DNA of 64,000 nucleotides, taken from a bacterium. GTDB lineage: Bacteria > UBA8248. The stretch's first letter is position 1, and every line of letters begins with the position of its first letter. The notes beneath the pieces are model-generated. The model was not told where the DNA came from. It made no database searches and saw nothing but the letters and a program-made list of their open reading frames with translations. The translations under genes were made by a program, and so were the position numbers. The stretch is from assembly GCA_965204535.1 (NCBI GenBank), contig CBDBEV010000001.1, forward strand, positions 1,632,001 through 1,696,000. The letters are read 5' to 3'. Shown piece by piece: positions 34,905-57,229 of this stretch.

Positions 34905-37058
34905 TTAACGCGATAAGCAGCACTTTTTGTACTTGAGTCCACTGCCACACGGGCAAGGCGTATTGCGGCCTATCTTTCTCGTCGCTCCCTGAGGCGATCG
35001 GGATATTGAGGCTACTAGGTCGAGAAAGTCTCGGGTCTTGGCGTCCATTTCGGCGCTTCGCTCCCATTTATGATCGAGGCTCACACTGAATCTCAACGTG
35101 GCAGTCTCGGGTGATATGCATATACCAAACCAAGTGTCCGCTTTTGCAATGTATTTCCGCTGAATGCAATACGCCCTCAACCGGCGGTCCGCCACAACCA
35201 CAGGGTCATTATTGCAATGAATGATAAGACCAGTTTTGCCCTCTCGAAAGGGCATCGTTAAATCATGATCTTTCCCATCTCTCCTTGCCAAGCCTACAAT
35301 TTCATCAATTTTATCGCTCACATGAACGAAGGTTTCCTCACTAAACGTCATCAGCATAAAACCAAGGTCAATCGTTGCGGGGCTAGGACTTGCTTCAATC
35401 GCTTTGACGATGCGTCCCAAGGTCGTTCTTCCGAGGCAGGTCAATATGCCGTCAGGTGTGCGTTTTCCTGGAAAACCCTCGCGTCGAACGGTCATAGCAG
35501 CATCGAGGTCCGTGGATATGTCATCACCGAGGAAGACCAAATCATGCTCGTCATCTACCCAAAGGTTGGTTTTGATGTGATGCGAAAGAATCGTCAACTC
35601 GTGGTTTGCGTGTAGTCGGTCAGAATAGTTCGTGCGCCGATTTATATAACTGAGCAGTGTGAGCGGCGACTGCAACATTTCCGTCATTGCATCAAGCGTG
35701 AACACTTCCATGATGAACGGGGGAGGTATGATATCGGTACTTTGAGACTTCAGGAACTGCCTCGCCTGAGAGCTCAGTGCCGGATAGTAACTGGAAACAA
35801 CGCAGATGACATATATCTCTTTGAGCTTGTGGCGCACGGTAATTTTCTGGGTATCAGTACCCTTCAGTTCGAATTCTCCGCGGGCCAGAAACTCCGCGCA
35901 CTTGTATCCTTGGTCATAGGCGTTCTGGACGCTCCTTGTGAAATCATCTCTGATTTTTCGGTCATTCCCCTTCCTTGCTTCTAATGTTAATTTCTTGGAC
36001 TTGGCTTGGAGTACGATAGCTCTGTTGCCAAAAAGCACCAGGACATCAATCTCGCCGATTTTTTCACCTTTCGATTTAACGATATCGACATTCGAGTGGA
36101 CATTCTTCTTCCCAAAAACAAGTTCCAACCTTTCTTGACAGAACTCTTCGGTAAACCGCCCTCTGTTCTGCATGGCAGTAGCTCTATACTGCCGATCTTC
36201 ACACATCCAGTAAAAGGGAGATTCGTACATCGCTTCGACTAGGCTATGGTTTTGAAAGAGGACGAATGAATCATCACTGTAACGAATTAGCGGCGCGGCA
36301 TTAACGATATTGAAGTCATTAAGCGTCTGAAAACTTCTGTTATTTTCTGCTGGCGGAACAGAGAACGCGGCAAAAACTCTCTGGGCTATGGCGACATCTA
36401 TGTCAGCGCGTTCTGCGACTTCACGGTCCGTGAACGTGAATGCTGGCAGGATAGACCAAGTATCCGGTGAAGTCTTTTGCATTCCTGCGAGTGTATGGGA
36501 GAGCTTTTCGTTCTGAATCTTCGCAACCACATACCCGATTTCTCGGGCTGTGTTGATAGAGAAGCCTTTGTTCGTTTCGAGCCACGCCTCATCGTTCTCG
36601 TATTTCCTGGGAGCCAGATCACGAAATTGAAAAGTATAGGCGGATTCATCCCCGTAGAATATCGTCTCTCGCAGTACTTTCCCGGAACCAAGTGGGTTGA
36701 AACCGCTCCCGGCAGGTGTCTCTTGCTCTGATTCTTCACTTGCTGCCGCAATCACAGGTTGGAGCATCGATTCATGTAGTTCTTGGAGCAGAGCTTCCGT
36801 TTCGTCTAAGTACTGTTGCATTACTGGAGGAGCAGGTAATGTCCAATCAATATCGTCTTTTACCAAAAGGCCGATCAGCGTGGATATCTCTGCTCTGGTT
36901 ATTGAGTGGTCGCGGTTCATGGCATCGGGTGTCAGACCTTCACCCTCACTATACGTGACGCAATTTTCTCTGTAGCACAGATAAGCGATTGCGTGCGCAT
37001 AACCCGGCGACACGCATAGCCGTGCAAGTTCGTCGAATATATCTTGCTCTTTTCTCAT
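34905..37058 (-). CDS. NERD/PD-(D/E)XK-like nuclease with C-terminal SEC-C zinc motif
   Basis: RGRFTE...GEIDVLV...VLQAKSK nuclease motif; terminal KIGRNTPCPCGSGLKYKKCC. Confidence 0.8.
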   Translation of the reverse strand: MRKEQDIFDELARLCVSPGYAHAIAYLCYRENCVTYSEGEGLTPDAMNRDHSITRAEISTLIGLLVKDDIDWTLPAPPVMQQYLDETEALLQELHESMLQPVIAAASEESEQETPAGSGFNPLGSGKVLRETIFYGDESAYTFQFRDLAPRKYENDEAWLETNKGFSINTAREIGYVVAKIQNEKLSHTLAGMQKTSPDTWSILPAFTFTDREVAERADIDVAIAQRVFAAFSVPPAENNRSFQTLNDFNIVNAAPLIRYSDDSFVLFQNHSLVEAMYESPFYWMCEDRQYRATAMQNRGRFTEEFCQERLELVFGKKNVHSNVDIVKSKGEKIGEIDVLVLFGNRAIVLQAKSKKLTLEARKGNDRKIRDDFTRSVQNAYDQGYKCAEFLARGEFELKGTDTQKITVRHKLKEIYVICVVSSYYPALSSQARQFLKSQSTDIIPPPFIMEVFTLDAMTEMLQSPLTLLSYINRRTNYSDRLHANHELTILSHHIKTNLWVDDEHDLVFLGDDISTDLDAAMTVRREGFPGKRTPDGILTCLGRTTLGRIVKAIEASPSPATIDLGFMLMTFSEETFVHVSDKIDEIVGLARRDGKDHDLTMPFREGKTGLIIHCNNDPVVVADRRLRAYCIQRKYIAKADTWFGICISPETATLRFSVSLDHKWERSAEMDAKTRDFLDLVASISRSPQGATRKIGRNTPCPCGSGLKYKKCCLSR

Positions 37059-38448: not shown

Positions 38449-39618
38449 CTAGATGTCCATCGCTATTAGAAGACGCCGTGTTTCGGAATGAAGATACAGT
38501 TCGTCATCCTGAGTGATAATTCGGGAGTGCATTGTGCAGACGCGTATCGGGTAGAGTCTTTGGAATGACTCTTCGACCAATGACTTTCGACGGAATACCG
38601 GGGCAAATGCTTCGTCCCAATTATCCTTCCGTACGATGATTTTCACGTAATCGGTAAAATCCGCGTAGGCGATCAATGGTTGTTCGGATTCGCCTTCATC
38701 GCGCGCCTTTGCTTGTTTCTCGATCCATTGTTGGCGCATTTCGCCGGGGATACGATGCTTGATCCAGTTTTTGCACACGGTCTCCGTCATGCGTTGGTCG
38801 ATGAATGCGCGGACACGGGTCTCGAAACGCAGTAGACGGTCATGTGCGTCATTGGTGCGTTCAAACCCAGCTTCCTCCTCGTTTAGCTGATGGTCGGGCT
38901 CATGGTCGTAGGCACGGATGAAGTGTGCTGGGGCGCTTTTGATGCCCGCAATCGTGATGGCTTGGTCGAAGGCGCTGGCCGGGAAGTCAGTTAACTCTGG
39001 ATCGAGGCCGCGCTCAACGTAGAAATCTGAACGCGCCAGTGGATCGGTAAAGATTTCCTTGGGCCAGTCGATCCTTGCTTGCCAGTCGCCGAAGTGGGGC
39101 CGCAACTGCTCCGCTAGCTCGACATCGAAGGGAGATTTCGTGCGCAAAATATGGCCAATTTGCTGCAATCCAACAAATCCTGCAAGAGACTGAAGTTGGT
39201 TCTCTGTGTTGAGCCACGGGGTAGTCATCGCTTCGATCGCGTGGAGGAGCTGGTTCTTGTGATCGTGATAGTGAGCAACTGCTCTGGCCGATCCGGCCAT
39301 CTGCAGTTCCTGGAGAAGTTTTGTGGTTACCGACAATTGCGGTAAGTGGAACTGATTTTCGATTTCCACCCCTAAATTTCGAATGACATCTAGCTCAGTA
39401 GCAACGCTCGAAAGGGGGTGGAGCTGAAGGCTGCGACGTAGATCCTCAACCGGACCTAGAGCAGCGCGTCTAAGAGTGCGGGTACGGTCAGCATCCGCAA
39501 TGAGGTTCCGAATTCCCAAATCGGGTTGTAGAGCTTCGATCTGAGCCGACAACGGTTTAAGTTGACGCCGTATGGCTTCGTGCGCCGTAAGCGCTCTTTT
39601 GAGTGTTTCATCCATCAT
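38449..39618 (-). CDS. Swt1-like HEPN domain protein
   Basis: C-terminal LLRFETRVRAFI, YADFTDY..II....NW...F and Rx4H motif RVCTMH; helical N-terminal region. Confidence 0.75.
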   Translation of the reverse strand: MMDETLKRALTAHEAIRRQLKPLSAQIEALQPDLGIRNLIADADRTRTLRRAALGPVEDLRRSLQLHPLSSVATELDVIRNLGVEIENQFHLPQLSVTTKLLQELQMAGSARAVAHYHDHKNQLLHAIEAMTTPWLNTENQLQSLAGFVGLQQIGHILRTKSPFDVELAEQLRPHFGDWQARIDWPKEIFTDPLARSDFYVERGLDPELTDFPASAFDQAITIAGIKSAPAHFIRAYDHEPDHQLNEEEAGFERTNDAHDRLLRFETRVRAFIDQRMTETVCKNWIKHRIPGEMRQQWIEKQAKARDEGESEQPLIAYADFTDYVKIIVRKDNWDEAFAPVFRRKSLVEESFQRLYPIRVCTMHSRIITQDDELYLHSETRRLLIAMDI

Positions 39619-39713
39619 GTCATGCTCCAATATCTATATGTTCAGCATAACCGGGCGCAACTTAGTGGCGCAGAGAACCTGGATACTTGTTGTCGCCGCG
39701 CCCTTATTGAAGA

Positions 39714-40931
39714 TCATAGCAGTTTTCCAAGGATGTAATCCAATTCGCTAGATGCTTCGAGGAATTTGAGAAAGCCCTTACCCCAGAACGCATAGGTGCA
39801 GTTTTTATCTATACTCCAGCCAGTCCCGTGTCGTGTAAGTCCATGATCCGAGAAAGGCATGCGTAGAGTGTGGATCATCGCGATTTCTTTTTGGTGTTCG
39901 TGAATTGTATAGGAGTCAGGGAAATGATCGTGACAGAGATCGATAAAAATGAGCGGCGGTTTTGGGTCGCGACGCCGTGCTTCACCCAGCCATGAGTTGA
40001 GGTGCAGGTCATTGAGCCCGGAACCGATCACGTAAATTATGTCGGCCGTCATCGCATCGCGGGCCATACTGGCGTAGTAGTGCGAGAATGGTTGTCGTTG
40101 TAGAGGGAAGAGCTTGTCGAGACCGATGATGATCTGCGTGCGGACGGCTCTTCCGCCATCCATCCTCGGATCGTCAGATACCCCGCGAAACGAATTGGCC
40201 AAGGCCTCGTCTCGATCGTCATACCAGTAGAGATCGCCCAGATCCGAATCGTATGACGGGGGGTGACCGAAGTTTAAATGCACGGAACCGTGCAGATGGA
40301 AGATGCAGTCTCGGTCAAAGGCCGCCCAGAATGCTTGGCGATCAAGTTCTTTTTGACCGGAGCATCGGGCAGGGGCAAATCCGGTATAGAGATCCGGGCA
40401 AGCTTGAAGGATAAAATCATCGTAATTGGTAGTATAGATGCGGGTGATGTGGTTTTCTTGTAACTTCGCAACGAACGCACTCAACGATTCAAGGTGCTTT
40501 GTCGGCGCTGCGGAGACGTCCGAGAGTTCGGCGAGAATGAGTTCCGCCATACGGTAGAGTAATTCCCTGAAGGTTTCTCGAGTAACGTCGATGCGACGTT
40601 CGACAAAAGGAACGAGGACCGGTTGATATTCTGGGGCGGTACCCAGAATTGGCTTGAAAGTGAACATCAGTTCATGGGCGCAATGATAGATGTGCTCGAA
40701 GTTGACAAGACCCTCACAGGCAACTTCGTCGGATACTTCCTTGTAGTAGCTCGTGAGAGCATGCTTAATCTCTAGCCAAGCACGGCCGCTTGCGCAATCC
40801 CGCTTCCTGTCGCCCGCAAGCATTTTTTTCTCAATGGATTTGGTCAGATCGGCGGTAGAAGACGCGCCGAAATCCATCGAAGCACCCGCCCCTGTCAATA
40901 CCAGTGCACGTTTTTTCCGCAAGGTCGGCAT
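39714..40931 (-). CDS. SIR2-like (SIR2_2) domain protein, putative NADase
   Basis: LVLTGAGAS, YTTNYDD, HLHGSV and VIGSGLNDLHL. Confidence 0.82.
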   Translation of the reverse strand: MPTLRKKRALVLTGAGASMDFGASSTADLTKSIEKKMLAGDRKRDCASGRAWLEIKHALTSYYKEVSDEVACEGLVNFEHIYHCAHELMFTFKPILGTAPEYQPVLVPFVERRIDVTRETFRELLYRMAELILAELSDVSAAPTKHLESLSAFVAKLQENHITRIYTTNYDDFILQACPDLYTGFAPARCSGQKELDRQAFWAAFDRDCIFHLHGSVHLNFGHPPSYDSDLGDLYWYDDRDEALANSFRGVSDDPRMDGGRAVRTQIIIGLDKLFPLQRQPFSHYYASMARDAMTADIIYVIGSGLNDLHLNSWLGEARRRDPKPPLIFIDLCHDHFPDSYTIHEHQKEIAMIHTLRMPFSDHGLTRHGTGWSIDKNCTYAFWGKGFLKFLEASSELDYILGKLL

Positions 40932-41404
40932 TCCTTTCTGCAATTCCTATTGTACGGAGAACAGTAAAATCATCATTGGGCTCGTAGCGCGAGACTGTCT
41001 CATTTATGAAGGAAACATGACAGGGCTCGACGGTTCGCGCCGGAGCGCTTCTCTCTCGTCTTCTTCCATCGCGTTTTCTCACGTTTTTCTGTCATACCCC
41101 AGCGCACCGGAGCATATCTGTGAGCGTATTTGGAACAATTCCGTAGGATATGAGCTATTAAAACCTGTTGCCCCCGAGAAATTTTCGTATTAAATACGCT
41201 TCGATGAATGCGATCGAATCCCGCACCGGGACCACCCCGGCCTGTCAATCGAGACGCAGCATCCAGACCCGGCTCGCAAGCCGTCCGGCATCGCCGCCGT
41301 GGACCGGTTGGGCGAACGCGTCTCCACCCCACCCGGGAGAGGCCGGCAAGTGACTCCCCGAGGAAAATCACAGCCATCCATCAAACCCTGAAAAGGAGAA
41401 CCGA

Positions 41405-43489
41405 ATGACCATCGGAAACGCCACCCTGCGGGGCGGCCAGACCCTGCTCCACGACGCCAGGATGTGGGGCCAGCTCGCGCGCTGGGGGATTTTTGGACTC
41501 GTCCTGACTGTCGTCCTGACGCCCGCGGTCAGCGTCTTCACGACGACGACCGCGCACGAGTGGCGCGTCGTGGGCCTGGGCACCCTCGCCGAGGCCAAGC
41601 TCGCCATCGGGTATTCCCCCGATTCGGGCCAGGTGTACGAGTGGGGCGCGCGTGAGCGGACGATCGAGCGGATTGAACTCATCGCTTCGGACCCCAGGAT
41701 CGAGCGGATCAGGAGGCGCATGCTCGATACCATTTATGGGAAAGCCTGGCTGGGCCTCTGGCTCGGCCTGGGCGGCGTGGCCCTGTTCGCGTTCTTCTTC
41801 TGGATCCTGGGCCGGCGCATGGCGAGAGCGCACCGGGTCCGGGGTGCGGAGATGACCTCGGCTCAGGCGCTCGGGAGGCGTGTCCGGCCCCTCTCCTACC
41901 GCCTGGCGGAAAAATTCTTTCCGGCGGCGCGCAGACCCACGCCCCGCATCGCGGGCGTCCCCTGGCCCGCGCGCGCGGAAACCCAGCACACCATCGTCTC
42001 GGGCACCACGGGTTCGGGCAAGACCGTCCTGATCTCGGACCTGGTTGCGCAGATCAGGGAACGCGGCGAGCGCTGCATCCTCTACGACAAGATGGGGAGC
42101 TACACGCGGGCGTTCTTCGACCCCGCCCGCGACGTCCTCATGAATCCCCTCGACGCCCGGGCGCCGCGCTGGTCGCCTTTCCTGGAAGCCAGGACGCCCA
42201 GGGATTTCGACACGATGGCCGCCGCCCTGATACCCCAGCAGAAGGACACGGTGGACCCCTTCTGGGTCACGGCCGCCCGGCAGCTGTTCGCGAACGGCGC
42301 GGGCGTCCTCTGGAAGCGCGGCGTGACGGAGAACCGGATACTCGTCGAGCACCTGCTCAAGACGGAGCTGACCTCCCTGGCCGAGGCCATGGAGGGCACG
42401 GTGGCGCAGTCGATCGTGGACCCCGAGAACCCCAAGACGGCGCTCTCGGTGCGCGCCATGCTGACGGCGCACCTTGGCGCGCTCGAATGCCTGCCCGACT
42501 CGGGCGTCCCCTTCTCGATCAGGGAATGGGTGGAGCGCGAGGACGAGACGGGCTTCCTGTTCCTGACCTCGCGCGGGGACCAGCACGCGAGCCTCAGGGG
42601 CCTCATCTCGACCTGGCTCGAGATCGCGGTGAACGCGCTCCTCTCACTCGGCCGGGACGACGCGCGCAGGATATGGATTGTGCTCGACGAGCTTCCCACC
42701 CTCCATCAGGTGCCGAGCCTGCAGCCCGGACTCACCGAATCGCGGCAGTTCGGCGGGTGTTTCGTGCTCGGGATCCAGGTGATCTCCGCCCTGCGCGATT
42801 TGTACGGGCGAAACGGCGCCGAGACCGTATCGGGTCTCTGCGGCACCCGGGTGGTGCTGGCCGCGCCCGACCAGGAGACGGCGCGCTGGTCGGCCGAGAG
42901 CCTGGGACGCGGCGAGGTCACCGAGTACGCGGAGGGCCTGAGCTACGGCGCCAGCGCCATGCGCGACGGTGTCTCGCTCACCGAGCGCCGCGAGATGCGG
43001 CCCCTGGCGCTGCCGTCCGAGATCATGCGCCTCGAGAATCTGCACGGCTACCTCAAGTTCCCCGGTCCCTGGCCCGTGGCGCGCATCGAGCTCGACTACG
43101 TGAAGAGGCCCGTGGCGGCCGAGAGTTTCATGCCGAGGGAGAATGCGCCGACGCAAGAAACGGGAGGCGCCGAAGCCGGGGCATCGAAGACCGGGAAAAC
43201 ACACGAGTCCGGGAGGGCGACTGAATCCGGCGAGGCGGCGAATCGGCAGGAAGCCGAATCGCCCGGCGATACGACCGCGAACGGCGAGGCGGAAGACGGG
43301 GGTGAACGACCCTCTCCGCCGCCGGACTCAGGCCTGGCGGGGCCCGAGCAGGCCCCCGAACCATCCGGGGCGCCGCAACCCGCGGTCCGCTCCGCGGATG
43401 GGGATGACGCCGGTGCGACCGATGACGATGAGCAAAACCGGGGCGAAGAAGGCGAAGAGGCCGGGTCCCGCACACCGGACTGGTTGTGA
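41405..43489 (+). CDS. traD: Type IV coupling protein (TraD/TrwB family)
   Basis: Two N-terminal TMs, Walker A GTTGSGKT, YDKMG, NPLDAR, DPFW and Walker B LDELPTL; acidic low-complexity tail. Confidence 0.92.
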   Translation: MTIGNATLRGGQTLLHDARMWGQLARWGIFGLVLTVVLTPAVSVFTTTTAHEWRVVGLGTLAEAKLAIGYSPDSGQVYEWGARERTIERIELIASDPRIERIRRRMLDTIYGKAWLGLWLGLGGVALFAFFFWILGRRMARAHRVRGAEMTSAQALGRRVRPLSYRLAEKFFPAARRPTPRIAGVPWPARAETQHTIVSGTTGSGKTVLISDLVAQIRERGERCILYDKMGSYTRAFFDPARDVLMNPLDARAPRWSPFLEARTPRDFDTMAAALIPQQKDTVDPFWVTAARQLFANGAGVLWKRGVTENRILVEHLLKTELTSLAEAMEGTVAQSIVDPENPKTALSVRAMLTAHLGALECLPDSGVPFSIREWVEREDETGFLFLTSRGDQHASLRGLISTWLEIAVNALLSLGRDDARRIWIVLDELPTLHQVPSLQPGLTESRQFGGCFVLGIQVISALRDLYGRNGAETVSGLCGTRVVLAAPDQETARWSAESLGRGEVTEYAEGLSYGASAMRDGVSLTERREMRPLALPSEIMRLENLHGYLKFPGPWPVARIELDYVKRPVAAESFMPRENAPTQETGGAEAGASKTGKTHESGRATESGEAANRQEAESPGDTTANGEAEDGGERPSPPPDSGLAGPEQAPEPSGAPQPAVRSADGDDAGATDDDEQNRGEEGEEAGSRTPDWL

Positions 43490-46395
43490 TGGTCGTCTCG
43501 ATCGGCGCCGTCGCCGCCCCCGCCCAGGGCGCCTCCTACTACGAGCGCGACGGCTACTACGCCAAAGACGACCCCGCCCACAGGGAGGTGAGCGCATGGG
43601 CCGGCAGGGGAGCGGAGGACTTAGGCCTCACGGGCCCGGTCGACCCGGAAGTGTTCAAGGCGGTGCTCGAGGGCGAAGTGCCCGACGGTTCGGGGAGAAA
43701 GCTCGGCCGCAGGCGCAAGGACGGCGTCCTGGAGCACCGTCCCGGACGCGATCTCACCTTCTCGGCCCCCAAATCCGTCTCGCTCGCCGCGCTGGTGGGC
43801 GGCGACGCCCGTGTCGTCGAGGCCCATGACCGGGCCGTCGAGCGCACCCTCGCCTGGGTCGAGGGCCACGCCGCCGAAACCAGGATGAAGGACCCGGAGA
43901 CGGGACGCATGGTCCGGGCAGGCGATCAGAAAACGGTGGCTGCGACCTTCCGCCACGACGCCTCGCGCAACCTCGACCCCCAGCTTCACACCCACGCGGT
44001 GCTGGCCAACATGGTCCGGGGTCCGGACGGCAAATGGAGGACGATGTCCAACGAGGCGCTCTACCGCAGCCAGAAGCTGATCGGCATGCTCTACAGGAGC
44101 GAGTTGGCGCAAGGACTGGGGAAGCTGGGCTACGGGATAGAGAAGACGCACGCCGACGGGCGGTTCGAGGTCGCCGGCGTCCGCCGCGAGGTGATCGAGG
44201 CGTTCTCGACCCGGCGGGCGGAGATCGAGGCGGCGATGGCCGAGCGGGGTCTGGGAACGACGGCGGAGAACCAGCGCACAGCCGAGCGCGCGGCGCTCAT
44301 GACCCGCGCCCGCAAGCGAGACGTGGACAAGTCCGCGCTCAGGGGCATATGGGAGAAACAGGCCGTGGACCTCGGGTTCGACGCCAGGGCCCATGCGGCA
44401 GAAGCGACCTCAAGGGTCGTTGGCCTTGAAGGCAAAGGAGCCGCCCGGGAGAGCGGTCCGGCCGGAGAGGCCGTGGAATGGGCCGTGTCGCATCTCGCGG
44501 AGCGCGAGGCCGTGTTCGCCCGCGCCGACGCGCTGGCTGCCGCGCTGGCCTGGCGGCCGGGCGTGGTGTCCGTCGAGGCGGCGGAGAGGGCGCTGAGCGA
44601 TCTCGAAAGAGGGGGACGGCTTCACCCCGCGCCGGGGCTGCACGGGAGGGACGACCTGGCGACTGACAGGGCGCTGGCGGACGAGCGCGAGACGATCGGG
44701 CTGATGCGGGACGGCCAGGGCCGGGGCCGGGTGGCGATGCGCAGCTGGATCGCGCAGGCGCATCTGCACAAGGGAGCGCTGACGCAGGGCCAGAGGGAAG
44801 CGGTCAAGCTCATCCTATCGACCAAGGACCGTGTCGTCGGCGTGCAGGGCTATGCCGGGACCGGCAAGACCACCATGCTGAACCGCGCCCGTGTGTTACT
44901 GGAAAAACGCGGGTTCGAGGTCAAGGGCCTCGCGCCCTCGGCCTCGGCGGTGAAGACGCTCGGAACCGAGGCCGGGATCGAGAGCGAGACGCTGCAGCGT
45001 TTCCTCGCGCGAAACGCCGGCGTGGCCGGAGGCAAGCTCACCAGAAAGGCCGAGAAGCGGATGCGCGCGGCATGGGGCAAGACGGTGCTCGTGGTGGACG
45101 AGGGGTCCCTCGCCTCCACACTGCAGGCCCGCGACCTCCTGCGGGTCGCGCGCGCCCTGCGCATCCCGAGGGTCGTGCTGGTGGGCGATGAGAAACAACT
45201 GGACGCCGTGGACGCCGGCAAGCCCTTCGCGCAGCTCCAGCAAGCCGGCATGAAGACCGCCGTGATGGACGATATCCTCCGCCAGCGCGACCCGGACCTC
45301 AAGGCCGCGGTCGAGGCGAGCCTCGCCGGCGAGATCGGCCGCGCGTTCGAGAAGCTGGGATCCAACGTCGCGCAGGTGAAGGCCGACAACATCGCGGGCG
45401 CGGTGGCGGCGCGCTGGCTCGCGCTCTCGCCCGAGGCGCGCGAGAACACCGGCGTCATGGCGCCCAGTCATGAACTTCGCCGGAAGATCAACACCCATAT
45501 AAGGGAGCGTCTCGCGCGCGAGGGCAGTATCCACGGCCCCGCCTTCAGAGGGGAGCGGCTCGTCTCGCGCGGTTATACGAACCCCGAGAAATCGCTCGCA
45601 GCGAACTACGCCCCGGGTGACGTCGTGGCCTTCCACCGCCCCTACAAGCGCCTGGGTGTGGAGAAGGGCGACGAACTCCGCGTATCGGGCGTGGATCACG
45701 AGAACCAGGCGGTGGTGCTCGAAGGCAAGGACGGCGGGCGCGTCTTGTGGAAGCCCGGGCGGATCGCCGGGCGGACGGGTGGCGCCGAGGTCTACCGGGC
45801 CGAAGAGATAGAGCTTCGCGCCGGCGACCGTATCCGCTGGACCCGCAACGACAAGGGATCAGGCCTCGTCAACAGCCGCACAGCCGAGGTCCTATCGGTC
45901 GGGAACGGCCGTGTCTCGTTGCGCCTGGAAGACGGGCGCAGGCTCGCTATGACCCCGGGCGATCCCCAACTGCGTCACCTCGACCATGCCTGGGCCTCGA
46001 CCGTGCACGCCTTCCAGGGCCGGACCGTAGACAACGTGATCGCCGCGATGCAGGCGAACCACCCTCACCTCACTACGCAGAAGAGCTTCTACGTGGAGAT
46101 CAGCCGCGCCAGGGACCGGGCGGAACTCGTGACCGACGACGCAAAGGCGTTACGCGAGCGGCTCGAAACGGCCACGGGCGAACGGGTATCGGCGCTCGAG
46201 GGGATCGGAGAAGCCGCACGGGAGGCATCCGGAGAGGAGAAGGTGAAGTCGGGGGAGGCGGAACCGGAGGCCGGAAAGGATACGGAGAGGTCAGAGAAAG
46301 CGCCCCAACCCGTTGAACGGCGGACGCAGAAGCCCGAGAAGACGCCGGGGATGGAGAAGGTCCGGACGGCGCGCGGGATAGAGATGGAGATGTAG
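43486..46395 (+). CDS. MOBF relaxase-helicase (TrwC/TraI family)
   Basis: YY-x4-YY (SYYERDGYY), DLTFSAPKSVS, HDASR..DPQLHTH HUH motif, Walker A GYAGTGKTT and TVHAFQG. Confidence 0.95.
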   Translation: MMVVSIGAVAAPAQGASYYERDGYYAKDDPAHREVSAWAGRGAEDLGLTGPVDPEVFKAVLEGEVPDGSGRKLGRRRKDGVLEHRPGRDLTFSAPKSVSLAALVGGDARVVEAHDRAVERTLAWVEGHAAETRMKDPETGRMVRAGDQKTVAATFRHDASRNLDPQLHTHAVLANMVRGPDGKWRTMSNEALYRSQKLIGMLYRSELAQGLGKLGYGIEKTHADGRFEVAGVRREVIEAFSTRRAEIEAAMAERGLGTTAENQRTAERAALMTRARKRDVDKSALRGIWEKQAVDLGFDARAHAAEATSRVVGLEGKGAARESGPAGEAVEWAVSHLAEREAVFARADALAAALAWRPGVVSVEAAERALSDLERGGRLHPAPGLHGRDDLATDRALADERETIGLMRDGQGRGRVAMRSWIAQAHLHKGALTQGQREAVKLILSTKDRVVGVQGYAGTGKTTMLNRARVLLEKRGFEVKGLAPSASAVKTLGTEAGIESETLQRFLARNAGVAGGKLTRKAEKRMRAAWGKTVLVVDEGSLASTLQARDLLRVARALRIPRVVLVGDEKQLDAVDAGKPFAQLQQAGMKTAVMDDILRQRDPDLKAAVEASLAGEIGRAFEKLGSNVAQVKADNIAGAVAARWLALSPEARENTGVMAPSHELRRKINTHIRERLAREGSIHGPAFRGERLVSRGYTNPEKSLAANYAPGDVVAFHRPYKRLGVEKGDELRVSGVDHENQAVVLEGKDGGRVLWKPGRIAGRTGGAEVYRAEEIELRAGDRIRWTRNDKGSGLVNSRTAEVLSVGNGRVSLRLEDGRRLAMTPGDPQLRHLDHAWASTVHAFQGRTVDNVIAAMQANHPHLTTQKSFYVEISRARDRAELVTDDAKALRERLETATGERVSALEGIGEAAREASGEEKVKSGEAEPEAGKDTERSEKAPQPVERRTQKPEKTPGMEKVRTARGIEMEM

Positions 46396-48039: not shown

Positions 48040-49042
48040 ATGAGCGGCCCACGCAAGACGAAAATCGACCGGGCGAGGCGCCTGGCACAGGACCTGCTCG
48101 GACGCGTTGCCCGGGGCGAGGACCCCACCGGTGAGCGGGCAGACGTCCGAGGCGTCCCCACCCTGGTCCGGGCCTTCGAGGTCTACATGGCGGCGAACCC
48201 CGACCGCGCGAAAAATACCGTCAGGCTCTACCGGCAGAACCTGCGGGTCAACCTCTCCGACTGGCTGAAGCGCCCGCTCGACGCCATCACCCGCTAGGAC
48301 GTGGAGGACCGCTTCAATCTCATTACAGGCAAACACGGCTGGTCGGTGGCCAACCAGACGCTCTCGATGCTTCGCTCGATCTACCCAAGACCTTGTGTCG
48401 ATTTCGAGGGATTGCGCAATCCGGTCGATCTTTTGCTGGCCGGCCGGGGGGCGCTTCCACCGCAAGCGCAGGCGGCGGATATCGAGCCCGGCCGAGGTGT
48501 TGCCCCGCTGGTGTGCGGGCATCGAGGCCGCCGACCTCGAACCGGAGGTTCGTGACATCTTCCTGATCGGCATCTACACCGGCATGCGTCGGGGAGAGAT
48601 CGTATCCCTGCGCCGGGAGCAGGTGGAAACGGAACGGCGCATCCTCAGGGTCGAGGAGACCAAGACCGGGGAGCCTCTTGAGCTTCCGATCACCCGGCAA
48701 CTTGCTGTCATCTTCGAGCGGCGCCTCGCGGATGGCGACGGCCCGTGGGTGTTTCCGTCCCCCAGGAGCGAAGCCGGACACGTGGCGGATGTTGCACGGT
48801 TCTATGGCGAGATTTCGGAGAAAGGTGGAACCCGGCTCTGGTCCCACGGGCTGCGCTACGCCTTCATCACGGTGGCGGAGCGCGAACTCATGCTGCCGTG
48901 CTCGCTCACGAAGCGAATGGTGAATCACGCCCGGCCAAGCGACGTGACCGAGGGCTATGCCGCCGACTGGACGGTCGAGCAGCTACGCGAACCCGCGCAA
49001 CGTGTCGCCGACCGGATCGACCAACTGATGCGGGGAACGTGA
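48040..49042 (+). pseudogene. Tyrosine integrase pseudogene
   Basis: TGMRRGE, ETKTG, HGLR, MVNH and TEGY motifs; 5' truncation, in-frame TAG at 48295-48297 and a frameshift near 48450. Confidence 0.88.
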
Positions 49043-49142
49043 CGGTGACTTGCAAAGTGAAACGGACAGGAGTGACGCATGATTCACGACGTCCATACAA
49101 CAAATTTGTAAGTAGTTCCCTCGCTACATCTCGGGCCGCCAG

Positions 49143-49757
49143 TCATTTGACAAGGCCATTTTCTTTCGCTAACTCGGAGGTAAGCCGTTCAGAGCGGTCG
49201 AGAAAGTCCAGCATTGGGTCGAGATCGTTCAAATAGTGCCGCCACTTTCCATTGAGTTGTTCCCAAGCAAATCGCTTGCTCCACAGCCCGACATCCTCAT
49301 CAAGATAAGCGCAAATGTCCATCAGCGTATCCAGCCTTCGATTTGGAGGTCCCTCCGGAGGTTCAGGTTCTTGAGTGCTGATGAACGCCAGAAGAGTCAA
49401 AGTTTTTTCGGCCATGGCCTGCCGGTATATTGTTTCGAGCCGATTCGACATTTCAGAAGGCAGCTGTTCAAGTAACTTACTTAAGTAATGGCCTTGGGCT
49501 CCACGTTTCTCCGGCTGTATGCGATGCAATGCCAACAGGCATTTCAATCGCAATTCAAGTGCGACACCAAGGTTGAAATGGCTCACCGTTTTGAGCGACT
49601 CCCAAACGTCGTGTTTTCGCCACCCGGTAGCCCCGCCAATGGGAGAGAGATCGCCCTCTTTGGCGCCCAACTCCAGTATTCGACGTTCGATCAGCCAAGC
49701 GGTCTCCGCAAACGCTTTGGTGTCCGCCAATATTCTGATGTACTGGTCACCATTCAT
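49143..49757 (-). CDS. Hypothetical protein, HEPN-like
   Basis: FNLGVALELRLKCLL...GHYLSKLL pattern typical of HEPN helices; ATGA-coupled to the upstream gene. Confidence 0.55.
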   Translation of the reverse strand: MNGDQYIRILADTKAFAETAWLIERRILELGAKEGDLSPIGGATGWRKHDVWESLKTVSHFNLGVALELRLKCLLALHRIQPEKRGAQGHYLSKLLEQLPSEMSNRLETIYRQAMAEKTLTLLAFISTQEPEPPEGPPNRRLDTLMDICAYLDEDVGLWSKRFAWEQLNGKWRHYLNDLDPMLDFLDRSERLTSELAKENGLVK

Positions 49758-50197
49758 GCTGCAGGTTTATGAAGGTAGTATTGGGAGGTCGGAGATGGAG
49801 GAACGCTTGATAGCCAATCAATTCTTTCAATCCCTGGCTGGATGTTCTGCATAGTTGACGCAACCGAGGCGTCCGGCACCTCCTCCCGTATAGCCTGAAG
49901 AAGGCTTCTCAACTGGTTCTTGGCGAACCCGGGGGTGGCACCGTCGTCCAGCCACCGAACCGCGACTTCCTCTGCTTTGGCAAACTGCTTGGCTTTGTAG
50001 TGCAACGAGGCCGCGCTCACCGCAGAGATGCCGAGCGTCCGCGTTTTGGATACATCCAAGGATCCAAGGGCACTCATCTCCGCATCGGCGGCACGGGCAT
50101 ACAACTCCAAAGCGTCTTGCTTCCGACCTTCCCGCAGGGCTGCTTGCGCGTCAGAAGCCAGACGTTCACTGACATTGTGGTGTTCGATCCAGGACAT
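49754..50197 (-). CDS. Hypothetical alpha-helical (TPR-like) protein
   Basis: A..LY..AA.AE..AL and SAASLHYKA...AEE helical pattern; GGAGGG RBS before MSWIEHH. Confidence 0.65.
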   Translation of the reverse strand: MSWIEHHNVSERLASDAQAALREGRKQDALELYARAADAEMSALGSLDVSKTRTLGISAVSAASLHYKAKQFAKAEEVAVRWLDDGATPGFAKNQLRSLLQAIREEVPDASVASTMQNIQPGIERIDWLSSVPPSPTSQYYLHKPAA

Positions 50198-50217
50198 TGT
50201 ACCCTCCGAGAAGGAGT

Positions 50218-50754
50218 TCAAAGTTTGGCCAACAGAATCAAACGCGCCCTGAAGCCGACGACGCCCGCGATCGCGGGCAAGTTACTGTTTCCACTTTCGG
50301 CTTGCTTGAGTTTGGAGCGGAGACGCTGCTTGATCGTGCCCTCCTCTCCACGATCCACACCGGATATTTCAAGCCGCCAACAATCTTCCAGGTCAGTCGG
50401 AATTCTATCCTTGAGAGCAACATAGTAGTCTGCACCGGTCTGTGTCTCCGCCCGGCTGACGGCAACGAGGTTATTGGAAAGCTCAACCGCTGCCAGGACG
50501 CAGGCATAGGCACCAGCTTCCGTCGTGTCGATATAATTGGCCCATGCCTGCCCAATACGTGTATCGGGGGCTTCCCACTCGACCACGGTTATTGAACGCG
50601 CCTCGCTGTTGTCGAGATGGAATTCCGTCGGTGATTTGTGATGGCGGTCCATGCATACGCTGGCGGCCTCCGTGTACGAGTCTGCAATTGCCTTCGTCAA
50701 ACCAAAGTGGCGCTGTTCCATTTCGTGAATAGGCAAAATTGGTACGGTTGCCAA
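50218..50754 (-). CDS. Hypothetical protein with restriction-endonuclease-like motifs
   Basis: TE.GA helix, TGADYYV and RLEISG resemble an E...D...E-x-S variant of PD-(D/E)XK. Confidence 0.6.
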   Translation of the reverse strand: MATVPILPIHEMEQRHFGLTKAIADSYTEAASVCMDRHHKSPTEFHLDNSEARSITVVEWEAPDTRIGQAWANYIDTTEAGAYACVLAAVELSNNLVAVSRAETQTGADYYVALKDRIPTDLEDCWRLEISGVDRGEEGTIKQRLRSKLKQAESGNSNLPAIAGVVGFRARLILLAKL

Positions 50755-50861
50755 AATGTCCCCCTGTACTGCCGCGTATCACGGTTGTGAGCAACCGTAT
50801 GAGCTTATATGCATCCCTTGATTACGGTAGGCAAACACTGTTGTTGAGTCAACCCGTATAG

Positions 50862-51025
50862 ATATCTTGCGGATGGTCGACGGGAAGGTGAACATCGGCA
50901 CGACGTGCTTCCAGGCGCGCCGCCAGACTGGGGCTACCGCCGAATAGCGGTCGCCCCAGTGGGTTTCGAACTCCACGAGCCTAACCTCTGCGGCTTCGGC
51001 CGTCTCGGCCCGGTAGATCGCATTG
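50862..51025 (-). pseudogene. IS256-family (Mutator) transposase fragment
   Basis: IYRAETAEAA...EFE..WGDRY.AV...WRRAW..VVPMF.FP..IRK. Confidence 0.8.
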
Positions 51026-51196
51026 TCCCGCACCAGACCCTCGTCGCAGGCCTTTTTGCCGACGACTTCGGGACGAGCGCACTCGGATCATGAACCGAAC
51101 ACGCAGTGGGAGGAAGGAGGAGTCATTTATCCGATTCGCAAGCAGTGATAAAGTGAGGGGAATAGAATATTCGCCGGTCGGGAGGTTGAGCGCATC

Positions 51197-51898
51197 GTGA
51201 AAAAGCGGGTTTGGCGTAATGGGGAATTGGCTCCGTTTTCCCTGAGTCTCAAAGAAATGGGAAGTGTTTGCTCGTCGTTGTCGGAGGAGTTCGACGAGCC
51301 GGATGATGTTCGCATTTCGATTGATGTAAATCTCCCCGGCGGAGTGCGTCTGGAATTTGAAAGCATTGAAGAAATGATTGGGCATCCATCATTACCCGAT
51401 GTCATCAACGAGTACGTTATACGGATGAGCAACGAGAGAGGGCAATCTCTTAGCGTAAATTATCCTGCTCCCATATATTCAAGAGCGACCGTCTCAGCGA
51501 GTTCCGAGCATGAGGGGTGGTGCACCGGAGTCGTCGAGGTGGCTTCCTCGGCCTTGCGGAAGCATCTGGTCTGGCATCGCTGGATTCCCCGCCATTACCT
51601 CGTCTGGCTAATGGTTCAACTTTTATATTTTCTTTCAGTATTCAAAGTGTGGCCAGCGCATCAAATTCGGAGGGAGATTGATTCACCACTCGAATTGGTG
51701 GTTTTCACTGCTGTTTGGGTTTTTAGTTTTTTGATGTGCTTAAGACCCGAACTCGTACTTCCGGCGGGTGCGATACGGGTGAGAGAGAAGGAAGGTTTTA
51801 TACACCGCTACGCTACCCAGATCATGATGGGCCTTGGTCTCATTACGGCTACCGCCGCGATTATCAACTTGTTCAAACCTTGGATATTCGGCTCGTAA
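51197..51898 (+). CDS. Hypothetical membrane protein (soluble N-domain, about three C-terminal TMs)
   Basis: 233-aa ORF with GTG start after GGAGG; hydrophobic segments in the C-terminal half. Confidence 0.6.
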   Translation: MKKRVWRNGELAPFSLSLKEMGSVCSSLSEEFDEPDDVRISIDVNLPGGVRLEFESIEEMIGHPSLPDVINEYVIRMSNERGQSLSVNYPAPIYSRATVSASSEHEGWCTGVVEVASSALRKHLVWHRWIPRHYLVWLMVQLLYFLSVFKVWPAHQIRREIDSPLELVVFTAVWVFSFLMCLRPELVLPAGAIRVREKEGFIHRYATQIMMGLGLITATAAIINLFKPWIFGS

Positions 51899-53249: not shown

Positions 53250-53435
53250 ATGCCGATACTGAACTAGCTGACGAGAGACGAGGACGTTCGTACGGCATCG
53301 CGCGCGCCTTACCGCCTGCTGGAGGAGGCGTCCGATCTCTCCGCCGGAGACGCGGAGACCGACAACATGCTCGTTCAGGGAGACAACCTGAAGGCGTTGA
53401 AGGTGCTTTTGCCCTTCTACGCCTCGCCAGAGTAG
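53250..53435 (+). pseudogene. N-terminal remnant of a type III R-M Mod-like DNA methyltransferase
   Basis: Translates MPILN*LTRDEDVRTASRAPYRLLEE...DNMLVQGDNLKALKVLLPFYA; TAG at 53265; homology ends at the convergent DSR-like gene end. Confidence 0.78.
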
Positions 53436-56400
53436 TCTCCAGGCGTAGGACTCGCATGTCGTATCTCTGGAAGAGGATCGTCTTTAGCGTTCTCTACCCA
53501 GCCGGCGACAGCTGGCTCATGATCGAAACCATGTTCGGCCATGGCAATCGACAAGTGTGTACAACCCCACCTCAGCAATGGCACGTCGATATCGTCATCG
53601 TGTATTGCATCGTACCTTAACTCCTTTGCAAGATAGCCGAGCCCTTCCGTTACTAATTCCTTAATAGCATTTCGCTGTTCCTCGCTACCTTTAAGAAACA
53701 CCCATCTAGCGATTCTGAGCGCCTGTATTAGAGCTGCCTTCCGTTGCGTAGCAACCATAAAGCCAATTTCTCGCACCAAATCAGTTGGCGGATGCTTCAA
53801 TTCAACACCCGCATCATGTCCGGCCTCCAACCAGAACTCCAATGCTTCTGCAGCGTTTTTCGCGGACTTTTTCTCGTCGGACGCTAATCCCATCTTCATC
53901 GACTTCACTATTTCCTCGAAACACTCCGGTAAAGTTTTGACCAATCCGGCCGAAAGCACTCGAGCCGGCATTTCCAATTTGTTCAGCTTTCGGAATTTCT
54001 CAAGCAATGTTTTTGCAATTTTTTCAGAAACATCGATCTCTAACAGAATATGTTGCAGGCCGATAATCGTTTTCCGAACCTTGACGTCCGCATCACCCGC
54101 AAAAATCGGCTCCGATTGTCCGGTAAGCGGAATAGGAACCGGTATCGATTCCTCGCCCCATTGTCCAGCTACATCCGCAAGATATGACCGTTCTGCATCG
54201 GAAAGCGATAGAGGTTTTCCATGAATCCTGAGGTTGGCTATGGCAATACCCACTTGCCAAAGAACTTCACCCGCTCTCAGGCTCACCCCATCACTCGATT
54301 CGTTCGGCAGTAGCCATTTTGCCCGGAACCGTTGTTCGGCAAGACCCGGCTTGGGCTCCGGCAATACCAGAAACTCCCACTCAAAGAAATTAGTCCCGCT
54401 CGGCAGATTTTTGCTGCTAAGATAATCTTCACTCCAAAGCGCCTGCGCGATCTCGGAAATTTCTTCACCATCCAGAACTTTGAGATCAACCAGACAACTC
54501 ATTCTGGTGGCGGCTCGCCTTCGCGCTTCTTCACTACCGCGCATGCCCCGCACAAGATTGACTGTAATCTCGTTCCATCTTGATCCCTTGTCTGGAGTTC
54601 GGACGACCGCTGGGATATCGGTCCTCAAAAGCACCTCACAGGGGTCCGGATATCGCCCCGCCCCTGCTAATCCAGCCGCAAATCCGTCCATTCCGACAAT
54701 GGGAGCACTCAGTAAATCGAGAATGCGCTTCTCCCGCCGTTCTTCCGGCATCGTTTCCCAGCATCTGGCAAGAATGCTCCTGACGGGATCCGCGAGCAGA
54801 AATTCACCGGCGATTACATTGTTTTCGTACCAACCTAAAGCCTTGGTGAAGATGGATTCCACCCGCTCTGGATCAAGGCGAAGCACGAACCGCGACAAGG
54901 CTTCAACTACAACCGGTAGCCTGTCCCTTCCGTGCGATCCGGCTTTCAAAGCGGTATTTCTCGATAAAATGAATTCGACTGCATCAACGCAGATTTCAGA
55001 CAACCGGCGGACAGCATCAAGTGGGATAATCGCAACGCGCGCCCGGGACAGAATGAAATTCAGCGCACCCTCCGCCTCGTTTCCGGCAGCCCTCAGAACG
55101 AGGCGAGCTGCTAATTCAGGTTCATGCGGCGACAACCGCCTTGCCGCAAGTTCGAGATTTCTCGAAGCCACCTTCCTGCCAGGAATGAAGGGAGGCAGAC
55201 CGGCGACTTCAGCAAGGCGAACTGCCCTGTGAGCGGCAGCCCAGCGCAAATATTCACCTTGAGAGAAGCTGAATCCCTTTTGCCACACGTTGCCGAGATC
55301 AAAAGGTTGCCCCCCCGCCAGATTGCTCTCACCCTTGATTGCCTCAGCGCAGTTACGCATTTCAAGTGGTGCGTTACACTTGATCGGCGTCAACTTGTCC
55401 CACCTGTGCCGCCATTCAATTGTTGCGTCCCAGAATTCCTCGTAATCCAGTGTCGTCCCTGTGCAATACAGTGCCCAAGACTCCCGTGACGACATACCTA
55501 CATCACTGTCATCCGAGACAACTCTACGCGTTGCGGCCAGCGCGGTAGCGTTCAACTCCTGCGCTTTTTGGTTTTCCCCCATTTCAAAGAGGAGGGATGC
55601 TTTCCGCATCATCCAGACCGGATCGCAACCGCTCGTATCCCAATCTATGAGCTCTTTCTCAAGAGAGGCATAGTCCAGTGAATAGATTGCCCAAAGGCAT
55701 TTTTCGTGGCGGATTTGGTGGGCAATGCCCTGGTCTTCTTCACTGAATGGTGAAACGGCCGAAATTCGTCGATTGAACTCATCTGCATCAAATTGAAATC
55801 GTGACGCCGTGACGAGTGCCAGTGCGACTGAAACCCATGCTTCCCGGATAGTAACCCAGTTAGCTGTCCCTACGGTTTCTCCGTCAATTTTTCGACTGCG
55901 GCAATCAATCCGGTCAAGGACATCCGTTGCCGTCTTTTCCAGCTTTGAAGATATTTCTTCCATGCGTGATATCGGTTCCAATTGTATTTCCCGGCGCCAT
56001 ATCAGTTCACGAAGCAAGAGCAAGGCTTCTACCAGATCAAGATTCGGCAATACCTCCATTACCAGAGGCGCTCTTTCCCTGGTAGAAGACATCATCGAGC
56101 GAACCTCGGCGGGAGCGGGCAACCACCCTGGGTAGGTTTCTTTCCTGTTATACCTCCAAACGTCAACGAGTTTTCGAACAGCCGCAACCTTTTTCTCAAC
56201 CGACGATTCGTCTCTTGACGGAACATGAGGTTCCGGTTTGGGTTCATTGATTGTGACCCGGTGTATAGGTTCAAGATATTCCGGTACCAAAGGCTCGACA
56301 AGACGGGAAGGTGAGGGCCATTTAGAAACGTTATAAGGACGGCCATACTCCAATGTGTGTAGAATCCAGTCCGTAGAACGCTCGTGCTGAATATGCTCCG

Positions 56401-57229
56401 GATGCTCCCGCCACTGAGCGGCTTTCGGATGGCGGGCCAGATCGATAGGGATAACGTTTCGAGCCTCCAGCATGCGACGACGATGGATGGACAAATCGAG
56501 CCATCCGGCCAGATAGATTCTGGGCGCTGACGTCCCAAGATTGTCGCGGACCCACCCCGACCAGTGCAGAAAGTTCGGATCGTCCCCGGAGAAACCGATC
56601 AGGCAAAAGACCGTCTCCATCATGGCTTGCTGTACCGTGTTCACGAATGGCGCAAATCGCGCGGGGTAGGTTCGGTAATGCTCTTCCGTAAAGATAAGTG
56701 AAGACCGAGCATCCACCGACCCGTGTAGCTTCACGATTCGTGGGCTCGCAGCAAGTGGAATCTCATCTGTATTGAAAAGGACGCTGTAGTCTTGTTCCGG
56801 AACGGACGGGCGCGTTCTCTCAAGCAACGTATCCCAGTTGGTGGTGAATACGTCGCGCCAGGGAAGTCGCAAGAGACGTTCGTGCATTCGTCCGGGCCGG
56901 AACTCATCATCCCGTATCGATTCTCGCAAAAAGCCGTGGAGGCCGGCTGGCCCGAAGGCGGCCTCGTATTCCTGCGCCAACCTCAATGCACCGCTTGTTT
57001 CCGAACTAGCGGCTGATGTCCCGTGCCTGACTTCTTCATCCGGATACAGTTTTTCGTGCATTGCTTTTCTGAGATCACTCCAGGTAGGCGGTGCAAGGGT
57101 AGACGGTAGAAGTTTCTCTGCATTTCTGGTGAATCCCGCTCCGACCATTACGGTCGCTCCTCGGGACCGTTTCCAGAGAGCGTCCCGAACGTGATTGATA
57201 TGGCTTTGGTCAGAAAACTGCATGATCAT
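53417..57229 (-). CDS. Defence-associated sirtuin-like protein (N-terminal SIR2, long helical C-terminus)
   Basis: VMVGAGF, FTTNWDTLLE, VKLHGS and LIGFSGDDPNF; 1270 aa, the size and architecture of DSR proteins. Confidence 0.82.
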   Translation of the reverse strand: MIMQFSDQSHINHVRDALWKRSRGATVMVGAGFTRNAEKLLPSTLAPPTWSDLRKAMHEKLYPDEEVRHGTSAASSETSGALRLAQEYEAAFGPAGLHGFLRESIRDDEFRPGRMHERLLRLPWRDVFTTNWDTLLERTRPSVPEQDYSVLFNTDEIPLAASPRIVKLHGSVDARSSLIFTEEHYRTYPARFAPFVNTVQQAMMETVFCLIGFSGDDPNFLHWSGWVRDNLGTSAPRIYLAGWLDLSIHRRRMLEARNVIPIDLARHPKAAQWREHPEHIQHERSTDWILHTLEYGRPYNVSKWPSPSRLVEPLVPEYLEPIHRVTINEPKPEPHVPSRDESSVEKKVAAVRKLVDVWRYNRKETYPGWLPAPAEVRSMMSSTRERAPLVMEVLPNLDLVEALLLLRELIWRREIQLEPISRMEEISSKLEKTATDVLDRIDCRSRKIDGETVGTANWVTIREAWVSVALALVTASRFQFDADEFNRRISAVSPFSEEDQGIAHQIRHEKCLWAIYSLDYASLEKELIDWDTSGCDPVWMMRKASLLFEMGENQKAQELNATALAATRRVVSDDSDVGMSSRESWALYCTGTTLDYEEFWDATIEWRHRWDKLTPIKCNAPLEMRNCAEAIKGESNLAGGQPFDLGNVWQKGFSFSQGEYLRWAAAHRAVRLAEVAGLPPFIPGRKVASRNLELAARRLSPHEPELAARLVLRAAGNEAEGALNFILSRARVAIIPLDAVRRLSEICVDAVEFILSRNTALKAGSHGRDRLPVVVEALSRFVLRLDPERVESIFTKALGWYENNVIAGEFLLADPVRSILARCWETMPEERREKRILDLLSAPIVGMDGFAAGLAGAGRYPDPCEVLLRTDIPAVVRTPDKGSRWNEITVNLVRGMRGSEEARRRAATRMSCLVDLKVLDGEEISEIAQALWSEDYLSSKNLPSGTNFFEWEFLVLPEPKPGLAEQRFRAKWLLPNESSDGVSLRAGEVLWQVGIAIANLRIHGKPLSLSDAERSYLADVAGQWGEESIPVPIPLTGQSEPIFAGDADVKVRKTIIGLQHILLEIDVSEKIAKTLLEKFRKLNKLEMPARVLSAGLVKTLPECFEEIVKSMKMGLASDEKKSAKNAAEALEFWLEAGHDAGVELKHPPTDLVREIGFMVATQRKAALIQALRIARWVFLKGSEEQRNAIKELVTEGLGYLAKELRYDAIHDDDIDVPLLRWGCTHLSIAMAEHGFDHEPAVAGWVENAKDDPLPEIRHASPTPGDYSGEA

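Follow-up and report, generated by a model that had tools for sequence, protein, structure and literature searches.

Three short genes that are read in the same direction in a 64,000-nucleotide stretch of bacterial DNA (hereafter the window) raise the question of whether they constitute a new three-part defence system or an assembly of genes with separate histories. An earlier note had proposed the former, namely a DNase with a REase fold, a TPR-like partner and a HEPN-like RNase, while allowing that gene 2 might be truncated and that the core might consist of genes 1 and 2. Our analysis indicates that the locus is likely to be a defence cassette in the style of a toxin-antitoxin pair and not a fixed system of three parts, and, from sequence comparison and structural models, we incline slightly towards the more specific reading that the gene 1 nuclease is held by a helical domain, that the C-terminal sensor of its partner has been lost and that an otherwise solitary HEPN gene has been captured.

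The cassette and its mobile setting

The three open reading frames, with a 20-bp gap between genes 1 and 2 (50198-50217) and an ATGA overlap between genes 2 and 3 (49754-49757), were all found as the earlier note had described them, together with the motifs TEAGA, GADYY and RLEISG in gene 1 and ALELRLK...GHYL in gene 3 and a lowered GC content (0.55, 0.57 and 0.51 for genes 1, 2 and 3, respectively, against a genome-wide 0.605 and 0.66-0.69 in the genes for integrase and relaxase). The parts of the cassette are as follows:

50824 to 50852, minus strand: candidate promoter TTGACT-N17-TACCGT, at the 5′ edge of the cassette homology
50218 to 50754, minus strand: gene 1, 178 aa, TTG start with an alternative ATG at 50721
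49754 to 50197, minus strand: gene 2, 147 aa
49889 to 50197, minus strand: gene 2 residues 1-103, conserved helical domain, the predicted guard or antitoxin part
49754 to 49888, minus strand: gene 2 residues 104-147, a tail that stands in for the usual ~265-aa C-terminal part
49143 to 49757, minus strand: gene 3, 204 aa

The trio does not represent chance open reading frames, as each gene has many homologues (1037 among 1185 candidates for gene 1 at 90% clustering, 127 longer homologues among 3708 candidates for gene 2, and 103 among 261 candidates for gene 3) and as dN/dS is below 1 throughout. Across three cassette copies the ratio was 0.29-0.34 for gene 1, 0.33-0.51 for gene 2 and 0.16-0.25 for gene 3; all three genes are under purifying selection, which is strongest on gene 3. 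Nor is the cassette an assembly artefact, since it is spanned as a whole, at ~94-95% identity, by single contigs from two other studies (X5, covering 48965-51117, and X8, covering 49005-51049). These contigs come from two of the four sequencing runs compared, the remaining two runs covering the cassette piecewise, and three of the four bear the label sponge metagenome. The promoter scan called no sites; the candidate at 50824-50852 scored 8 of 12, below calling, and is given as a lead only, with like hexamers being present in the cassette copies L002 and L003.

None of the three genes had a match beyond noise in Pfam, PADLOC, NCBIfam or PHROGs, and the view that the trio corresponds to no named system thus held in these collections. 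PADLOC v2.0.0 (systems to 2023) returned no family at E<=0.1 for genes 1-3, and only marginal matches (E 5e-4 to 0.02) for a few relatives. PDB sequence searches with all three family profiles gave nothing meaningful, and Foldseek searches of the PDB and BFVD with the gene 1 and gene 3 models gave nothing at E<=0.001.

The cassette sits in an integrative mobilisable element, the cargo of which also includes a Y-family polymerase, two SIR2 genes (one of them Dsr2-like) and a SLOG protein. The flanks had been described as an integrase pseudogene and an IS256 fragment lying inside defence cargo, and this description is matched by PF00589, PF00872 and PADLOC Dsr2:

39714 to 40943: second, divergent SIR2 gene, with weak PADLOC matches only
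41405 to 43489: coupling protein
43486 to 46395: TrwC relaxase
48040 to 49042, plus strand: broken tyrosine integrase (PF00589, E 8e-12) with a stop and a frameshift, flanking the cassette and outside the module
50779 to 51033, minus strand: Mutator/IS256 transposase remnant (PF00872, E 1.9e-8), on the other flank
53417 to 57229, minus strand: Dsr2-like SIR2 protein, 1270 aa (PADLOC Dsr2, E 1.5e-158)

In NCBIfam the Dsr2-like protein scores 557 bits, under the equivalog cut-off of 1400. Besides the broken integrase the element carries two tandem integrase-like ORFs at 32252-34629, and two further lower-GC cargo genes lie on the minus strand, one at 34905-37058 (717 aa, with a SEC-C motif at its C-terminus) and one at 38449-39630 (393 aa, of no clear family). 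The plus-strand gene at 51197-51898 is possibly a membrane defence gene; its product of 233 aa is hydrophobic in its C-terminal half and matches nothing in the libraries, and the 5′ part of the gene is joined to the IS256 remnant in contigs X4 and X7. The window contains no tRNA that could mark an insertion site, and two were found in 56 loci.

A predicted nuclease and its helical partner

The AF2 model of gene 1 (pLDDT 94) contains, in order, a helix at residues 74-94, strands at 96-101, 110-114 and 126-133, a helix at 138-154 and a strand at 161-167, and this is the alpha-beta-beta-beta-alpha-beta core of PD-(D/E)XK enzymes. The top VIA match, at Z 6.6 and rmsd 2.9 over 95 residues, is the phage-type LHK exonuclease, tRNA splicing endonucleases match over the full length at Z 5.0-5.8, and lambda exonuclease, HsdR and Hjc are among the further matches; some 44 of the 50 rows, classed by reading their titles, are REase-fold entries, each with a modest score. 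The REase fold suggested for gene 1 is therefore borne out by the model and its VIA matches, albeit with a best Z of 6.6 that lies inside the range which VIA calls common, a point that, together with the empty Foldseek searches, counts against a nuclease restrained by a guard. In the ESM Atlas gene 1 matched unnamed clusters at 0.97-0.98 and a cluster bearing Hjc at 0.78.

Conservation was assessed in 138 sequences of 150-290 aa, being the query and 137 of 149 new representatives. D109 (99%), E129 (97%), S131, K148 and Q151 (94% each) and G132 (94-99%) are conserved, and the helix-1 acid is E79 in 62% of the sequences, while variants with R79 carry D80, such that an acid occupies position 79 or 80 in 137 of the 138. 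This compensation points to a maintained active site, and all three acidic ligands of the PD-(D/E)XK site (the helix-1 acid, the strand-2 D and the strand-3 D/E) are present. Where the classical E-x-K has its lysine, gene 1 carries serine (S131, 94%), which also counts against the guarded-nuclease reading, and K148 on the next helix probably supplies the catalytic lysine, giving a predicted site composed of E79 (or D80 in relatives), D109, E129-x-S131-G132 and K148/Q151. Gene 1 is thus modelled as a PD-(D/E)XK-fold nuclease with a variant site, in a family of 1765 clusters at 50% identity (E<=0.001) that extends over many phyla. Outside the nuclease core, its N-terminal part has a His/Cys cluster (H16, C34 and R37-H38-H39, 85-97% conserved) that may possibly bind metal or a partner.

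Directly downstream of gene 1 the helical domain was present in 80 of 80 loci, these being the best 80 of the 168 confirmed in GTDB, at a spacing of mostly -4 to +31 bp. The pairing extends to the distant gene 1 relatives L095-L097 (profile E ~1e-21 to 1e-24) and to 3 of 3 IMG/VR loci. Across the 80 loci the partner is full-length in 63, broken or partial in 5 and without its C-terminal part in 12, two of which are cut by contig ends. The canonical partner is a protein of ~370 aa, strongly conserved across its full length, in which a helical start and a conserved middle are followed by a C-terminal domain of ~60 residues that may be OB-like, judging by its sequence pattern. Gene 2 leaves this canonical protein after residue ~103, and it is regarded as a truncation because the usual partner has ~370 aa and no leftover canonical C-terminal part was found in the source genome. 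The suspicion that gene 2 is a truncated form and that genes 1 and 2 make up the core proved well founded in view of this linkage and partner length. The helical domain may be TPR-like, the sequence evidence comprising a weak BTAD match for gene 2 (E 0.015), a weak TPR_12 match in one of 38 proteins scanned (E 0.005) and the label TPR protein given by one source to P0344. One 250-aa protein, P0469, joins a partial gene 1 nuclease directly to the helical domain, as either a natural fusion or a frameshift artefact. Complex prediction for gene 1 with the helical domain gave 0.80, 0.26 and 0.26 in three runs, the median lying below the 0.32 mark.

The tail of gene 2 recurs in L002, L003, L004 and L146, and its dN/dS of 0.35-0.75 on 40 codons is more relaxed than in the rest of the cassette; compared with the linkers of sacsin/REase fusions it gave shuffle p values of 0.003-0.22 over five related linkers. 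The canonical C-terminal part matched unnamed ESM Atlas clusters at 0.90-0.92 and a DUF6575 cluster at 0.85. The latter is a lead only and had no PADLOC match, and DUF6575 is listed among new defence domains in PMC9519451. Canonical and distant family members likewise had no system match in PADLOC.

Truncation at this place is not peculiar to the window, as 27 of 120 longer gene 2 homologues have no middle domain and depart from the rest of the family near residues 101-104, and residues 101-110 form a family-wide junction for truncation or re-fusion. The cargos fused there comprise a Tiamat-like sacsin-helicase, a PDC-S06 ABC ATPase, DruH3 (Druantia DruH), PDC-S32/AbiJ-HEPN, a MORC-type ATPase-kinase (histidine kinase), a DEAD helicase, DUF7002 and a second, nuclease-like domain with or without Xre/MbcA; short junk tails also occur. 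In a quick tree of 119 helical domains, in which many forks are open, truncated or fused forms fall in several separate clades, and in one clade (support 98) near-identical helical domains are joined at the same residue to four unrelated cargos. At L023 (6531-8405) the domain is fused in frame to a GMC oxidoreductase, labelled as such by the same start as a Pfam-matched protein in L020, and at L159 and L171/L172 to what we take to be malate synthase G and an ECF sigma factor, respectively, with gene 1 intact upstream in each case. Site-specific recombination at the junction was considered and is rejected for now, as 25 non-canonical junctions and 40 of the canonical ones shared no DNA motif outside coding sequence. 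On the simplest view, the helical domain has to remain whole, such that deletions can reach its end but not enter it. The range of cargos also invites the view that the helical domain is a plug-in adaptor that would wire one nuclease to many sensors with a guard-like release, whereby a fused partner that senses phage, or is attacked, would make the domain free the nuclease, the HEPN gene of the window being an unfused version of the same capture; we regard this as rather doubtful.

The loss pattern of the pair bears on whether the helical domain restrains the nuclease. With the helical domain as anchor, 37 new loci were obtained; gene 1 is intact in 26, a fragment in 5, absent in 5 and cut by a contig end in one, and at 9 of the 37 the domain is whole with gene 1 broken or absent. 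Conversely, the helical domain is broken in the middle at 3 of 87 loci anchored on gene 1, and two of these three carry a change in the E-x-S-G of gene 1, G132R (L077) and S131P (L097). This asymmetry fits a toxin that has to go first, but is suggestive only, since neither the taxa nor the target size are the same in the two samples; many of the loci, moreover, are metagenome assemblies. A stop at helical-domain residue 97 in L076, and an insertion that splits the domain at residue ~71 in L094 beside an apparently intact gene 1, count against a guarded toxin. The split tolerated at L094 would agree with a partner that acts as an activator or recruiter and targets the nuclease to foreign DNA, in which case the truncated copy would be crippled and gene 3 alone functional. 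Such a role would also suit the strong conservation of the canonical partner over its full length, the commonness of broken copies and the particularly strong selection on gene 3, but it leaves the dN/dS of 0.3-0.5 for gene 1 and the helical domain among truncated cassette copies unaccounted for, as well as deletions that end at the domain border without removing the domain, and we consider it somewhat unlikely.

Gene 3 and the integrity of the trio

The AF2 model of gene 3 (pLDDT 89.5) is a four-helix HEPN bundle. Its VIA matches are 4nqf (Z 10.3, rmsd 3.3 over 135), 1ufb (9.2), HepT 5yep (8.8), sacsin HEPN (8.1) and AF0298 (7.9), and the top 14 rows are all HEPN or nucleotidyltransferase substrate-binding domains, with the caution that Z values under 13, and hence the best value here, are common for helical bundles. 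These matches bear out the HEPN fold that had been proposed. PF05168 matches 8 of 66 gene 3 family members (best E 0.0014), and the window protein itself has no Pfam match.

The canonical HEPN Rx4-6H at the end of helix 3 is absent, as Y/F-x-W-E comes after the invariant R162 and positions +5 to +7 hold no H, and the sole Rx4H string (R85-H90) lies in an insert and has an R85 that is not conserved in the family. Instead gene 3 has the features of the HEPN-T alternative-site class: an Ex3K in helix 2 (E68 in 65 of 66 members and K72 in 66 of 66), a histidine in the helix 2-3 insert (H90, 63 of 66) and a retained basic residue (R162, 66 of 66). An alternative active-site pattern of this kind has been described for HEPN-T and AbiV in PMC3710099. 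As Ex3K, H90 and R162 are kept, RNase activity of gene 3 is plausible. It is not one half of an MNT-HEPN pair, no nucleotidyltransferase having been found in the window or, by reading of ORF lists, beside gene 3 in seven loci where it stands alone.

Gene 3 lies downstream of the pair in only 3 of the 80 gene-1-anchored loci (L002-L004), and seven further gene 3 loci (L085, L086 and L088-L092), from searches of 40 and 41 genomes, have no gene 1 or helical domain within 1.5 kb. Gene 3 is therefore accessory, and the trio is a mobile, lineage-specific cassette and a derived form of a widespread pair; the DNase, partner and RNase proposed by the earlier note are not supported as a general unit. 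The trio could nevertheless have become one system in this lineage, the HEPN protein replacing the C-terminal part of the partner and the helical domain coupling DNase and RNase. We consider this unlikely: it agrees with the occurrence of the trio in at least three genomic settings (the window, L002 and L003/L004) as well as on contigs from two further studies, with a gene 2/gene 3 overlap that outlives 6- and 7-base indels and with dN/dS below 1 for all three genes, but, besides the rare linkage and the solo loci, L146 retains the tailed gene 2 and gene 3 with gene 1 reduced to its last codons, and no HEPN-helical fusion occurs among 103 gene 3 homologues of 112-357 aa. L143 is a decayed cassette copy.

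One of the solo loci, L092 (G000:C1:843621-843860), is a second, broken copy of gene 3, a pseudogene in the source genome, and a nearby ORF resembles, in our reading, a HigA antitoxin. At L090 the solo gene 3 homologue adjoins ORFs that look like the NikA-like and SLOG genes found on the element in the window, which suggests that such HEPN genes are a recurrent cargo of this family of elements.

Mode of action and relation to known systems

The nearest neighbours of the core pair were compared with control genes from 20 hand-picked stretches in 18 of the same genomes. At loci L005-L081, using a crude ORF caller and our own classing, and with generic helicases and four Uma2 genes left out, RM, TA, Abi, BREX, HEPN or RT families accounted for 30 of 120 nearest neighbours as compared to 6 of 106 controls (Fisher p 9e-5), and in matched genomes the count was 8 of 34 against 6 of 106 (p 0.006), the p values being overstated because kin are not independent. 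The enrichment in defence genes for which the earlier note had suggested a check is thus present at core-pair loci, although 90 of the 120 neighbours are not defence genes, which counts against a guarded toxin with a defensive role. So does the near-absence from phage and plasmid collections: plasmids yielded few members of the core family (1 to 4 records), and neither plasmids nor 50,697 phage records gave a match to the canonical partner.

A further alternative is a cassette that serves addiction alone, is purely selfish and does nothing against phages, the defence neighbours then reflecting shared insertion hotspots. Its scattered occurrence (2 of 61 genomes, the source genome and G090, have close copies and 3 have distant ones), the many copies among housekeeping genes and beside TA loci, and the fusions of the helical domain to housekeeping genes at L023, L159 and L171 speak for such a cassette. 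We nonetheless judge it improbable, given neighbours that include, besides TA genes, type I/III RM, BREX, GmrSD and a retron-like RT, and a large conserved C-terminal part that would be superfluous for simple addiction.

On the reading that we favour, genes 1 and 2 would be a cut-down copy of the widespread two-gene module. Gene 1 would encode a metal-dependent nuclease that, once free, poisons its own cell and that the helical domain of ~103 residues would bind and restrain. In the canonical partner the middle and putatively OB-like C-terminal parts may detect a trigger or contact nucleic acid, and a trigger such as phage infection would cause the partner to free the nuclease. The window copy has no such sensor part, and its pair would then be an addiction module or answer only to guard loss or turnover. 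Gene 3, independently evolved and likely an RNase, would have been captured behind the pair, sharing its promoter and translational coupling while working on its own.

In its working the pair would most likely resemble a type II TA module or an abortive defence module. It shares with type II TA systems a coupled two-gene operon (80 of 80 loci), a predicted nuclease, a loss pattern that fits a toxin lost first and frequent TA neighbours, but the toxin gene comes first in the pair, and the partner, normally of 370 aa, has no HTH or RHH match. PD-(D/E)XK effectors are frequent in defence, with 13-14 such systems in the DefensePredictor report (PMC13092281) and others among the PD systems of Vassallo et al. 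(PMC9519451). Similar to such effectors (HamA of Hachiman and the SPARDA nuclease, chains of both being among the weak fold matches of gene 1), the pair has a small REase-fold protein in an operon without a methylase and a mobile, defence-associated context; unlike them, it has an E-x-S site, a likely relocated lysine and an obligate helical partner, and no close relative was found in phages and few in plasmids. Table S6 of the DefensePredictor supplement contains no TPR and none of four motifs.

Gene 3 resembles the HEPN-T family (PF05168; AF0298/2hsb, TT1696/1ufb and sacsin HEPN) and AbiV in fold and in Ex3K, H90 and R162, but differs from HEPN-T in its length (204 aa with inserts as compared to ~125), in having no MNT partner and in the additional invariant residues S54/K56/S59/H60/N62/D153/Y175. 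TOTE and TALON, as described in PMC12458937, combine a TPR-CSD/OB protein with TBP-domain genes and an effector, with a YprA helicase in TALON. The module is similar to these in that a nuclease-fold gene shares an operon with a partner that may combine helical repeats and an OB-like domain, but TBP genes, a YprA helicase and a long TPR-CSD protein are all missing from it, and as TOTE/TBP Pfam models had no match in canonical partners or nearest neighbours it is not assigned to TOTE/TALON.

No published description of the core pair was found in the literature within reach, and the pair represents a large family without a name in Pfam, NCBIfam, PHROGs or PADLOC v2. This family matters more than the trio of the window, since the trio is a derived cassette. 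If gene 1 is indeed a toxin under the guard of its partner, the family would constitute a new nuclease TA or defence family with a variant active site, in which natural truncations map the minimal antitoxin to residues 1-103. Defence genes have been captured time and again at a single junction, and composite defence genes in symbiont genomes may originate in this manner.
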